Shown here: one piece after another, positions 1,736 to 3,474 of the stretch
Layout of the letters: the number at the start of each line of letters is the position of its first letter
Numbering within the stretch: position 1 is the stretch's first letter
Virus genome (UHGV): UHGV-0180729
DNA from: a virus
DNA: 44,771 bases
Strand: one strand, 5' to 3'
The notes under the pieces: model-generated
Told to the model about the DNA's origin: nothing
The model's database searches: none
What the model saw: the letters and a program-made list of their open reading frames with translations, nothing else
Position numbers and translations under genes: made by a program

Positions 1736-2236
1736 TTAACTATAATAGTTCGCTATTCGGTAGTCAACTTCTTTTAGCAAATTACTTTCAAAATTCTTTC
1801 TTGCCACGTTAGCCTGTTCAGGAGTTTCGAATAGTCCAAGGTAACGATATTGCCCGTTTACGGTAATTCCAGCCTGCCATTTACCGTGACTTTTGCGCCA
1901 AAACACGCCAGTGTACCCGCTTTTGTTATGACTTCTTCCAGTTTGAATGCCGCCTTTAGCCGCATTATCGCTATGAGCGATTAACTGGAGATTCTCTATC
2001 CTGTCATCATTTCTTATCGCATTTATGTGGTCCACCTCAAACCCTTCAGGTATAGGGCCGTTGTGGTACTCCCATATTAAACGGCTTCTTTGGTAGGACT
2101 TACGGTTAATGTATATCTGCACATACCCTGAATGGTGTAGGCTTCCCGCCTCCTGACCAGCTAACATTCTTTTTGTATTGTGGCGATAGATTAGTTTCCC
2201 GTTTTCATAAATGAAACGCTCCTGAACTAAACTCAT
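1736..2236 (-). CDS. HNH homing endonuclease with AP2-like DNA-binding domain
   Basis: Motif EVDHINAIRNDDRIENLQLIAHSDN (HNH) and C-terminal GVFWRKSHGKWQAGITVNGQYRYLGLFETPEQA (AP2-like); likely start MSLVQERF at 2236 overlapping the upstream stop (ATGA). Confidence 0.8.
   Translation of the reverse strand: MSLVQERFIYENGKLIYRHNTKRMLAGQEAGSLHHSGYVQIYINRKSYQRSRLIWEYHNGPIPEGFEVDHINAIRNDDRIENLQLIAHSDNAAKGGIQTGRSHNKSGYTGVFWRKSHGKWQAGITVNGQYRYLGLFETPEQANVARKNFESNLLKEVDYRIANYYS
1739..1767 (-). promoter_or_regulatory. Sigma70-like promoter, family A (TTGACT-N17-TATAGT), drives the SSB and polymerase genes
   Basis: Minus-strand reading TTGACTaccgaatagcgaactatTATAGT; near-identical copies at 5112-5140 and 42949-42977. 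Confidence 0.55.
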
Positions 2237-3474
2237 TCCAAATCCTCCTCTGTTACCCGATTCCACTCAGGCCGTTTGTCGTCTGCCGTTGCTACACATG
2301 GCGCACCCGGCTTACGAGTAATGAAGTCTTTCAGTTCTTCTTCCGGTAGTACTTTAACAGCTTCGGTCGGCGTCATTAGCACTTCTTTAGTCAGCTTGTC
2401 GCCGTAGAGTTCTGTTACTTTCTCCGCGTCTTTCCACGCACGATTACCAGGGCGACCTTCAACCAGTTTGTACCCCGGCACTTTCTTACCGGAATGCAAT
2501 GCGGCAGCCATAGCTTTTTCAACCTTGTCGATGTGCTGGCGCAACAACGGCAACTTCTCATACTCAGCTACGAGTTGCTCCGGCGTAAGTTCCAGCGCAA
2601 AGTCGTCCTCCAGTTCTTCCGCGAGTACAGAGTTAACGGTCTTTGTACGCGCGGCGCACTGTTCGGAGAACCGGCACCACTGACAACCATCAACCGACGG
2701 CCTGAAGTCCGACGCTTTCAGGTTCTTCTTACCCCGGAAATACGCGTCAAGGGCTAACAGTGCACGTTTCCGCGCGAACTTAGCGAACAGTTCCAGACCT
2801 TCAACCGATATGTCCCACTCTGACGCGCCGCCGGCGTACGGCTGGGAGATGACCAGGCGAACTACTGTGATGTTATAACGTCTCTTTAGTCGGCGATAAA
2901 CACCGATAGCGTAAAGCATAAGCTGCTTGTTTTCTTTCGCTTCGACACGATGTCGTCCTGTTTTAAGGTCGCCGATAATTAGCATGTGCTCATCGGTGTT
3001 AGCCAGTTCCTGAACGGCAACAAGGTCAGCGGTTCCGAACGTCTCAACGCCTTCATACCCCGGATGCAATACCTCAGTAAGATTGACACGCATTTCCAGC
3101 TTGGCGTAAGTCGCTACGTCGATAATTGCTTTGCAATAGTCGGTGTACTTGCGCACCTGCTCAATCATGTCCGCCGTAATCAGTACAGCGCCTTTCATCG
3201 GACTGATTAGCGCCTTAATCTGGCCTTTTCCTTCATCCAGCACGTAAGCGCCAACTTCACGCTCTAACGGCAGCGCAGTGCCTTTGATGTACTGATTTAG
3301 ATGTACCTCGGCTATGGTGTGACACGCGGTCCCTGTAACAGCGGCTTTACCTGACGTGTTAGGAATATCTTTTTCACAGGCCAGTGATGCACTGCACGAC
3401 AGCCACTTTTTAGCGCCAGACGGCGACAGTAAAGCGTGCACATCATTATTGCCGCCGCGTTCTTTTAGAATCAT
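2233..3474 (-). CDS. Cas4-like PD-(D/E)XK exonuclease (DUF2800-like)
   Basis: 413 aa; C-terminal Cys cluster CQWCRFSEQC typical of Cas4-type Fe-S nucleases; GGAGAG Shine-Dalgarno; ends in TEEDLE. Confidence 0.75.
   Translation of the reverse strand: MILKERGGNNDVHALLSPSGAKKWLSCSASLACEKDIPNTSGKAAVTGTACHTIAEVHLNQYIKGTALPLEREVGAYVLDEGKGQIKALISPMKGAVLITADMIEQVRKYTDYCKAIIDVATYAKLEMRVNLTEVLHPGYEGVETFGTADLVAVQELANTDEHMLIIGDLKTGRHRVEAKENKQLMLYAIGVYRRLKRRYNITVVRLVISQPYAGGASEWDISVEGLELFAKFARKRALLALDAYFRGKKNLKASDFRPSVDGCQWCRFSEQCAARTKTVNSVLAEELEDDFALELTPEQLVAEYEKLPLLRQHIDKVEKAMAAALHSGKKVPGYKLVEGRPGNRAWKDAEKVTELYGDKLTKEVLMTPTEAVKVLPEEELKDFITRKPGAPCVATADDKRPEWNRVTEEDLE

Follow-up and report, generated by a model that had tools for sequence, protein, structure and literature searches.

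The replication region of virus genome UHGV-0180729, a stretch of 44,771 nt referred to below as the window, raises the question of why two of its genes, those of a Cas4-like DUF2800 exonuclease and of a replicative primase-helicase, end in the same 18 nucleotides. The window is a complete, circularly permuted Kagunavirus (Guernseyvirinae) genome, ~90% identical to many E. coli phages. Its minus-strand replication module runs in the order helix-turn-helix (HTH) protein, p77, primase-helicase, four small genes, DUF2800 exonuclease, an endonuclease with HNH_3 and AP2 domains, single-strand-binding protein (SSB) and family-A DNA polymerase (PolA); coordinates are given in Table 1. In this study, we report that the repeat probably encodes a short linear motif, conserved at the C-termini of proteins of the replication and recombination module, which would be a docking tail of the kind known from bacteriophage T7.

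The 18-mer TTCCAAATCCTCCTCTGT was found exactly twice in the window, at positions 2236-2253 and 5441-5458. No third copy was present in the window at up to three mismatches, and the number of copies expected by chance was 0 (100 shuffles). The exact repeat is 19 nt rather than 18 (2235-2253 and 5440-5458), since both stop codons begin with T, and when the preceding Val codon is included 21 of 22 positions match (GTA/GTG ACA GAG GAG GAT TTG GAA T). Read on the minus strand, both copies give V-T-E-E-D-L-E followed by a stop (TGA at the exonuclease, TAG at the primase-helicase) and form the last codons of the two open reading frames (ORFs), while the flanking sequence is unrelated on both sides. 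The ORF of p77 ends ATLEDLE, with other codons (ACC TTA GAA GAC CTG GAA), and when the stop-to-stop ORFs of the window were compared in all six frames (minimum length 30 aa), ends of the form ...DLE or ...EDLx were confined to the exonuclease, the primase-helicase and p77. An earlier note on this DNA, made from the sequence alone, had reported the identical 18-nt segment with unrelated flanks, the TEEDLE ends of the two enzymes and the LEDLE end of the third protein; all are borne out by the translated ORFs, with the repeat one nucleotide longer. Given the same peptide and the codon usage of this genome, six identical codons would be expected with P ~0.004, and the nucleotide identity therefore needs a cause beyond the shared peptide. 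A 68-aa ORF on the plus strand (9185-9391, ending ...YSDLEDDDED) was considered as a fourth bearer of the tail and set aside as probably unrelated, as only two homologues occur in the related loci and their tails differ (YPDLEDDED, YWEEDEEY).

Conservation of the tail was analysed in ~190 related loci (numbered with the prefix L), which included 74 IMG/VR loci found with the exonuclease and 74 loci resembling that of Bordetella phage BPP-1. A whole-database search with the exonuclease, whose gene is held by more than 1,200 GenBank phage records, gave only matches of at least 95% identity, and diversity was therefore drawn from the IMG/VR loci and from 50%-cluster representatives. Exonuclease and primase-helicase alike retain the tail in the 74 IMG/VR loci. 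The earlier note had proposed examining the hexapeptide in homologues, and it was found on both enzymes in four groups. The exonuclease and primase-helicase tails are V[TS]EEDLE and VTEEDLE in Kagunavirus, VTEDDLEA and TTEGDLE in Jerseyvirus-like loci (where p77 ends ATPEDLE), [AV]SDEDLS and ASDEDLNS in Klebsiella VLCpiS11a-like loci, and ATDEDLSNE and ATDDDLKD in Dhillonvirus. In the last two groups, identity with the enzymes of the window is no more than 43-57% for the exonuclease and 27-33% for the primase-helicase. Between clades the tail codons vary freely by synonymous drift, and a peptide that is kept while its codons drift indicates selection on the protein. Kagunavirus primase-helicase alleles with ~32% identity to that of the window are 85-100% identical to it over the last 14 aa, as against ~46% over the 26 aa before. 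EDLE is invariant in 13 of 13 aligned p77 homologues.

These comparisons define the motif as an acidic run with one invariant Leu, of consensus [AV]-[ST]-[DE]-[DEG]-D-L, with 0-3 residues between the Leu and the C-terminus. The anchor is neither aromatic nor terminal in the window phage, and in distant relatives F, L or M anchors lie within the last two or three residues. Representatives of the DUF2800 family end [ST]D[DE]DL or, farther off, in a bipartite D[DE]F[ED]D[LV]...[DE]DL[VILA], and it is the first half of this bipartite tail, KRPALVIQAAADDFADV, that the exonuclease tail of the window, KRPEWNRVTEEDLE, matches in alignment. The Pfam DUF2800 model stops at residue 402 of 413 of the exonuclease, and a 2026 preprint describes the C-terminus of a DUF2800 nuclease as disordered (bioRxiv 10.64898/2026.07.14.737667). 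In six-frame scans the motif was confined to the exonuclease, primase-helicase, p77 and SSB gene families. As a separate observation, the Kagunavirus primase-helicase occurs as at least three alleles (~32%, 52-65% and >85% identical to that of the window; L011, L017, L020, L026, L029, L030), all of which share the last 20 residues IPKTIYEPNEML[TV]VTEEDLE, while p77 accompanies some of the alleles only.

The SSB of the window, which ends ...AFGGSKVAASVDDLEDDEEDEAPRRERRRR, carries the motif internally as SVDDLEDD, to be compared with VTEEDLE on the primase-helicase of the same genome. In an alignment anchored on FGG, DDLEDD of the SSB falls on DEFDDI of BPP-1 and on EDDWADE of T7 gp2.5. The AlphaFold2 (AF2) model of the SSB, with a predicted local distance difference test (pLDDT) score of 82, matches the DUF2815 structures 4KLK, 5ODL and 4JG2 as well as T7 gp2.5 (1JE5). 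The protein is thus of the T7 gp2.5 type and bears the motif, so that the analogy with T7, which the earlier note had drawn, is partly homology and not mere resemblance. Beyond the motif (1049-1090, minus strand), the SSB has an acidic run and then a basic end, DDEEDE-APRRERRRR, with no acidic tip as in T7 gp2.5. In the SSBs of Dhillonvirus and Klebsiella phages such acid and base blocks are repeated 2-4 times, in variable copy number (SSB genes of L058-L073, L050-L057 and L155-L188).

That the repeat arose by chance, or by a recent local duplication or gene conversion without function, is hardly credible on these data. The two copies in the window genome are indeed identical in nucleotides, but no copies are expected by chance, and the peptide is also present where most codons differ, on a third protein with other codons, and inside the SSB.

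In the 74 BPP-1-like loci the tails of the exonuclease and the SSB are near-identical and bipartite (DDFEDV…EDLV); those of BPP-1 itself are ...DDFADVSGETVEDLV and ...DEFDDITEGAAAADLV, respectively. The last residues change on the two proteins together, giving exonuclease/SSB pairs such as DMI/DMI, DFM/DFM, AFV/AFV, DLS/DFS and DLL/DLL, and tails paired within a genome match better than shuffled ones (p<1e-4; permutation over 55 unique pairs, kinship ignored). Further proteins of these phages carry similar ends. The 3'-5' exonuclease subunit split off from PolA (PF01612, ~357 aa) ends DAEDL[VL], the methylase neighbouring this subunit ends YGDLV, the Bpm methylase of BPP-1 ends YGVADLI, and small ORFs end DDFEAV or DDFEVVA. 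In the loci compared, the tail was never found on PolA, which ends ...YRYRK or ...KRYAK, nor on the SNF2-like helicase. The clade with the split polymerase, one of distant relatives (L111-L145; e.g. L130:17666-21299), carries the 3'-5' exonuclease subunit, then a DNA methylase, then the polymerase domain as separate genes.

Taken with the T7 precedent, these patterns lead us to infer that the tail docks, and we propose that the acidic-hydrophobic tail known from T7 gp2.5-type SSBs here takes this local form. The DUF2800 exonuclease, the primase-helicase and p77 would each bear, on a disordered end, a copy of the SSB's own motif; all could therefore plug into one basic receptor surface and would in this way be held at the fork. 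In T7 the acidic tails of gp2.5 and gp4 bind gp5, and PDB entry 6P7E has a DTDF peptide on the front basic patch of the polymerase (PMC12339929). As read here, the T7 tails are ...EDDWADE...EADEDGDF on gp2.5 and ...TDWSNDTDF on gp4, with none on gp6. The window phage resembles T7 in that the SSBs belong to the same fold family (PF10991/gp2.5-like), in that an acidic motif with a hydrophobic anchor occurs on both the SSB and the primase-helicase of one genome, and in that the tails are disordered and the polymerase is without one. It differs in the anchor, which is Leu plus 0-3 residues rather than a terminal Phe, and in the set of proteins concerned, as the tail is here also on the Cas4-like exonuclease (T7 gp6 has none) and on a winged-helix protein and, in relatives, on the split proofreading subunit and on methylases. 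It differs also in the position of the SSB copy, which is internal and followed by the basic RRERRRR end, and in that binding is here a prediction.

The receptor that we prefer, tentatively, is the family-A polymerase. It is the sole core protein never found with the tail, its detached proofreading subunit bears one, and there is the precedent of T7. The groove in which the SSB binds ssDNA ranks close behind and is quite conceivable, since the Kagunavirus tail corresponds to the OB-proximal first half of the bipartite tail, the part seen in crystal contacts. Tails of T7-type SSBs occupy the groove of a neighbouring molecule in four crystal structures (PMC5686142). Like the segment in those contacts (Enc34 ORF6, 4JG2, 4KLK and gp2.5), which lies in the concave beta-sheet of the neighbouring SSB (PMC5686142), SVDDLEDD sits directly after the OB core. 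Unlike them, as they are between SSB and SSB, the motif here is on other enzymes and the SSB groove would receive clients, a polarity not described before. The T7 gp2.5 tail also competes with ssDNA for gp2.5's own groove, according to work cited in PMC5686142, so that one T7 tail uses both surfaces, polymerase and SSB groove. Some other receptor we consider rather unlikely.

Several observations weigh against docking as in T7, and against the polymerase as receptor. Searched by sequence in the PDB, PolA matched the Taq, Bst and Klenow polymerases but not T7 gp5, and the basic patch was compared by way of a GR-motif anchor; with this anchor, the window PolA reads AGWWLRMT where T7 gp5 has the front basic patch KWKRRWIK (K587-R591), and a strictly T7-like site is therefore not conserved. 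Other conserved basic clusters of PolA, namely K532-R533-x-W-R536 and the C-terminal RYxK, are leads only. The anchor in the window is Leu followed by Glu and not a terminal Phe as in T7, and the SSB copy is internal rather than terminal. The AF2 confidence of the SSB tail segment is intermediate at 67-71 (block confidences of a monomer model, hence weak evidence) as against <50 for the p77 tail, which fits docking on the SSB and not on the polymerase. Finally, the co-variation statistic for the exonuclease and SSB tails ignores shared ancestry. The suggestion in the earlier note of a shared docking tail as in T7 is thus supported by conservation and SSB homology, while its more specific part, docking onto the polymerase, meets a PolA in which the front basic patch of T7 is not conserved.

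The tail could instead be functional without being a docking tag, either as an intramolecular DNA mimic that auto-inhibits a DNA-binding site or as a common signal for degradation or turnover by which the replication proteins are timed. The competition of the T7 gp2.5 tail with ssDNA, as cited in PMC5686142, would agree with the former, as would the altered DNA specificity of the Enc34 SSB after removal of its tail (PMC5686142), and the tails are acidic and disordered. We regard both versions as improbable, because one motif is found on unrelated folds (nuclease, helicase, winged helix, methylase and proofreading subunit) with last residues that co-vary within a genome, which argues for one common partner rather than a separate cis-site in each protein. 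In addition, we know of no E. coli C-terminal degron resembling ...EDLE.

The docking reading may also be set beside the E. coli SSB, whose C-terminal tip, DDDIPF, is a protein-interaction hub. The likeness lies in a short acidic-hydrophobic peptide on a disordered tail that organises genome-maintenance proteins. The two SSB families are unrelated, however, and in E. coli one carrier of the peptide serves many pockets, whereas here many carriers would serve one receptor. The combination duf2800-gp2.5-polA is a known phage gene module, described as a gene neighbourhood (PMC8093625), and the window likewise has exonuclease, SSB/annealase and PolA in a row. In the searchable literature we found no paper on proteins of this module sharing, or co-varying in, a C-terminal motif.

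The identity of the codons appears to belong to a second layer, at the level of the DNA. Two haplotypes of the exonuclease tail were found in the related loci. Without an inserted gene, the tail reads GTT AGT GAA GAA GAT TTG GAA TAA and is followed directly by the -35 box of the SSB promoter, with a gap of 81-101 nt to the SSB gene; this allele, GAAGAAGA (GTTAGTGAAGAAGATTTGGAATAAAGTGTTGAC), differs from the insert-bearing one at 6 of 21 positions. With an insert, the tail reads GTA ACA GAG GAG GAT TTR GAA TGA, and the gap to the SSB gene is 232-557 nt. The insert haplotype always occurs with an overlapping gene, and its GAGGAGGA…GAATGA supplies the Shine-Dalgarno sequence (SD) and overlapping ATGA start of the inserted gene. 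Six or more unrelated families of small genes have provided such inserts, the one in the window being the HNH gene. In the window, the HNH ATG lies within the ATGA overlap at 2233-2236, 6 nt after GGAGGA. SD-like codons end the exonuclease gene in 24 of 24 loci with a coupled insert and in 0 of 23 without, which makes the earlier note's remark on the SD and start of the HNH gene not only right but general.

We propose that both gene ends serve as slots where accessory genes insert and become translationally coupled, and that coupling fixes GAG-GAG-GAT as the SD, an A/T-rich TTR leucine codon, and GAA-TGA for the ATGA overlap. Such coupling would account for nucleotide identity beyond what the peptide needs, and p77, which has no coupled gene, uses other tail codons. 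The primase-helicase end would be the second slot, holding five insert families in relatives and a terminator in the window. An SD with overlapping start is not present at this end in the window (TAG at 5438-5440, then the terminator) and is present in 14 related loci. Here, too, there is evidence on the other side. SD-like codons are found at the primase-helicase end in 37 of 46 loci, including 23 without a coupled gene, that is, regardless of what follows, and coupling alone therefore does not explain this copy. The two copies may share a common origin, or gene conversion may have acted between the sites. Both slots (1736-2236 of the window and L005-L049; after the primase-helicase in L004-L047) hold changing small genes, many of them membrane-protein-like. 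Several unrelated slot genes end ...EKITGWKG or ...KITGVKV just before the promoter, which may be another trace of replaced sequence.

Another origin of the nucleotide identity, also raised in the earlier note, is an insertion footprint. The copy at 2236-2253 would then not be the ancestral tail but would have arrived with the insert or been remodelled for it; the insert would have entered between the Val codon and the old tail, the segment being duplicated around the cassette and the right-hand copy decaying or fusing to the newcomer. This explains the identity and not the existence of the peptide, is compatible with a docking tail, and seems to us a serious possibility falling somewhat short of even. 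The two haplotypes, of which the insert-bearing one is always joined to an overlapping gene from unrelated families, are as this would predict, as is the low probability of six identical codons given the peptide. Alignment places the window insert exactly between ...AATCGGGT and the -35 box; inserts in general occupy the interval from the exonuclease Val codon to the promoter. A second, decayed copy of the insert-free tail lies at the far (3') end of inserts. In L013 this remnant is identical at 22 of 26 positions, and the inserted 60-aa ORF ends KKEDLE and, to judge by this sequence, seems to have inherited the old tag; in inserts of the L005 type the match is 12-13 of 26 plus an indel. The similarity in the window (Table 1), where the old stop TAA is now AAA, is no more than suggestive of a remnant of the ancestral exonuclease tail. 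In several insert families the remnant is borderline (10-12/26) or absent, and similarity near the -35 box could partly reflect a conserved A-rich upstream element. After inserts in the primase-helicase slot no tail remnant scored above the null, so that this slot lacks the flanking duplicate. In the sampled loci no insert gene family was common to the two slots, which would have pointed to cassettes hopping via the 19-mer, and transfer between the sites is thus without support in the sample. The footprint idea is thus partly right for the exonuclease end, where the GAGGAGGA tail occurs only in insert-bearing genomes and a decayed tail copy lies at the far end of the insert.

The earlier note had also considered the 18-mer as a homing-endonuclease target. 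On this view the HNH enzyme encoded beside it would recognise or cleave it, and 5441-5458 would be a potential ectopic target. A gene with HNH_3 and AP2 domains, typical of free-standing phage homing endonucleases, does abut one copy, and it is rare, being full length in one GenBank phage only. Nevertheless this origin is very improbable. Non-HNH inserts of at least six unrelated kinds lie next to the identical sequence, most relatives without this HNH gene have it at the end of the primase-helicase, and in the window no insert accompanies it there. Moreover, cutting beside its own gene and in a second essential gene of its own genome would be self-destructive. Such an enzyme normally targets the allele without the insert, from which the sequence here departs at 6 of 21 positions, and what is conserved in the motif is the peptide, its codons drifting synonymously. 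In GenBank, 79 phage records match the region 1676-2300, and the HNH gene is full length only in Escherichia phage MirsaeidiM_Esher4 (PQ579973.1; 97% identity). Other HNH genes, 31-46% identical, are located elsewhere in related genomes.

Translational coupling by ATGA overlap, moron or cassette slots between conserved genes, and free-standing HNH homing endonucleases are known themes in phages. The arrangement here resembles them in having an SD within the last codons of the upstream gene, a stop/start overlap, and variable small genes in a promoter-bounded slot, with the HNH gene as one occupant. Unlike in moron slots, the landing pad here would be the coding sequence of a peptide tag, duplicated by the insertion, and an inserted ORF could inherit the old tag, as in L013. 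Insertion that duplicates the tag in this way resembles that of integrative elements which, on entering a tRNA gene, rebuild its 3' end.

A wider reading, which we offer as speculation and judge somewhat unlikely as a whole, is that the tail is a portable 'replisome address tag' across the duf2800-gp2.5-polA phage supergroup, with tag and receptor co-evolving by lineage, and that the DNA of the tag doubles as a landing pad that couples inserted genes. As insertion would duplicate the tag-coding segment, a newcomer could inherit the tag, like the L013 ORF. If true, it would be in this way that methylases, small winged-helix proteins and further accessory proteins become wired to the fork. New with respect to T7-style docking would be the different anchor, the wider set of clients, the co-variation within genomes, and the double use of the DNA as a coupling and insertion site, so that a single short stretch would serve as protein tag, ribosome-binding site and recombination slot.

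Cohesion of helicase, SSB and polymerase through acidic tails is a textbook case in T7, known from one phage. The present data suggest a like arrangement in a very large and little-studied group of phages that includes Kagunavirus, Jerseyvirus, Dhillonvirus and BPP-1-like phages. There the set of proteins concerned would be wider, taking in a Cas4-like recombination nuclease, DNA methylases, small DNA-binding proteins and a proofreading subunit detached from the polymerase. Co-varying tails would provide a direct and cheap handle on replisome wiring and could predict which accessory proteins work at the fork. For annotation and engineering of these therapeutic phages, a payload placed after the exonuclease or the primase-helicase would have to keep the tail.

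Table 1. Coordinates in the window of the tail copies, the genes that carry them and neighbouring features
Feature	Position	Strand	Remarks
Family-A DNA polymerase, N-terminal part	1-989	-	Starts MRYLYLDFET...
T7 gp2.5-type (DUF2815/Enc34 ORF6-type) single-strand-binding and annealing protein, 208 aa	1049-1675	-	PF10991 E=7e-16; phrog_112; AF2 model
Internal motif V-D-D-L-E-D-D in SSB, just past OB core	1091-1111	-	Followed by acidic run and basic end APRRERRRR
Inserted free-standing HNH endonuclease gene (HNH_3 + AP2)	1736-2236	-	Slot empty or with other small genes in relatives
Sigma-70-like promoter TTGACT-17-TATAGT of SSB-polymerase operon	1739-1767	-	Right boundary of insertion slot
Putative decayed remnant of ancestral exonuclease tail, read E-S-N-L-L-K, in 3' end of HNH ORF	1772-1789	-	14/26 vs insert-free haplotype, P ~0.002 per position
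DUF2800/PD-(D/E)XK (Cas4-like) exonuclease, 413 aa	2233-3474	-	PF10926 E=6e-68, PF12705; phrog_69 exonuclease
Last six codons T-E-E-D-L-E of exonuclease	2236-2253	-	Exact repeat 2235-2253; GAGGAGGA is also SD of HNH gene
Hairpin terminator directly after primase-helicase stop	5409-5430	.	Common to convergent XRE-type gene 5205-5420
Replicative primase-helicase, 746 aa	5438-7678	-	AAA_25; phrog_3228 E=4e-301
Last six codons T-E-E-D-L-E of primase-helicase	5441-5458	-	TAG stop, then terminator; exact repeat 5440-5458
p77, small winged-helix protein with disordered C-terminal tail	7736-7969	-	phrog_5169; AF2; structural neighbours at TM (template modelling score) 0.6-0.7
Last six codons T-L-E-D-L-E of p77	7739-7756	-	Third tail copy, other codons
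Family-A DNA polymerase, C-terminal part	43583-44771	-	Ends ...ELKRYAK, no acidic tail; candidate receptor

The AF2 fold of p77 is a winged helix of three helices and a beta hairpin, with pLDDT >90 over residues 1-62 and <50 over residues 67-77, which form the tail. Its structural neighbours are generic winged-helix domains, e.g. those of LexA and the MotA N-terminal domain, and p77 is accordingly modelled as a small DNA-binding domain with the tag on a flexible tail.

The promoter of the SSB-polymerase operon is one of three minus-strand copies in the window of the type TTGAC-N4-GAATAG-N4-CTATTATA (1741-1767, 5114-5140 and 42951-42977; 0 expected by chance), which stand at the heads of three operons of the replication module. 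Between the -35 and -10 boxes they contain the inverted repeat AATAG-N4-CTATT, which has the look of an operator common to all three, possibly one for the XRE-type protein encoded at 5205-5420.

The polymerase gene (725 aa, minus strand) crosses the ends of the window, so that an ORF list made without joining them misses it. A polymerase ~310 aa longer occurs in several relatives (L007:10022-13132, L038, L042, L044-L047, L059 and L062). The additional segment, for which no Pfam name was obtained, lies in motif B (RQIGKA|C...VAHN|CELGLGY), at a position equivalent to the Cys448 codon (44417-44419) of the window polymerase, which is without the insert. Its boundaries, with Cys at the start, His-Asn at the end and Cys at +1, mark it as an intein.

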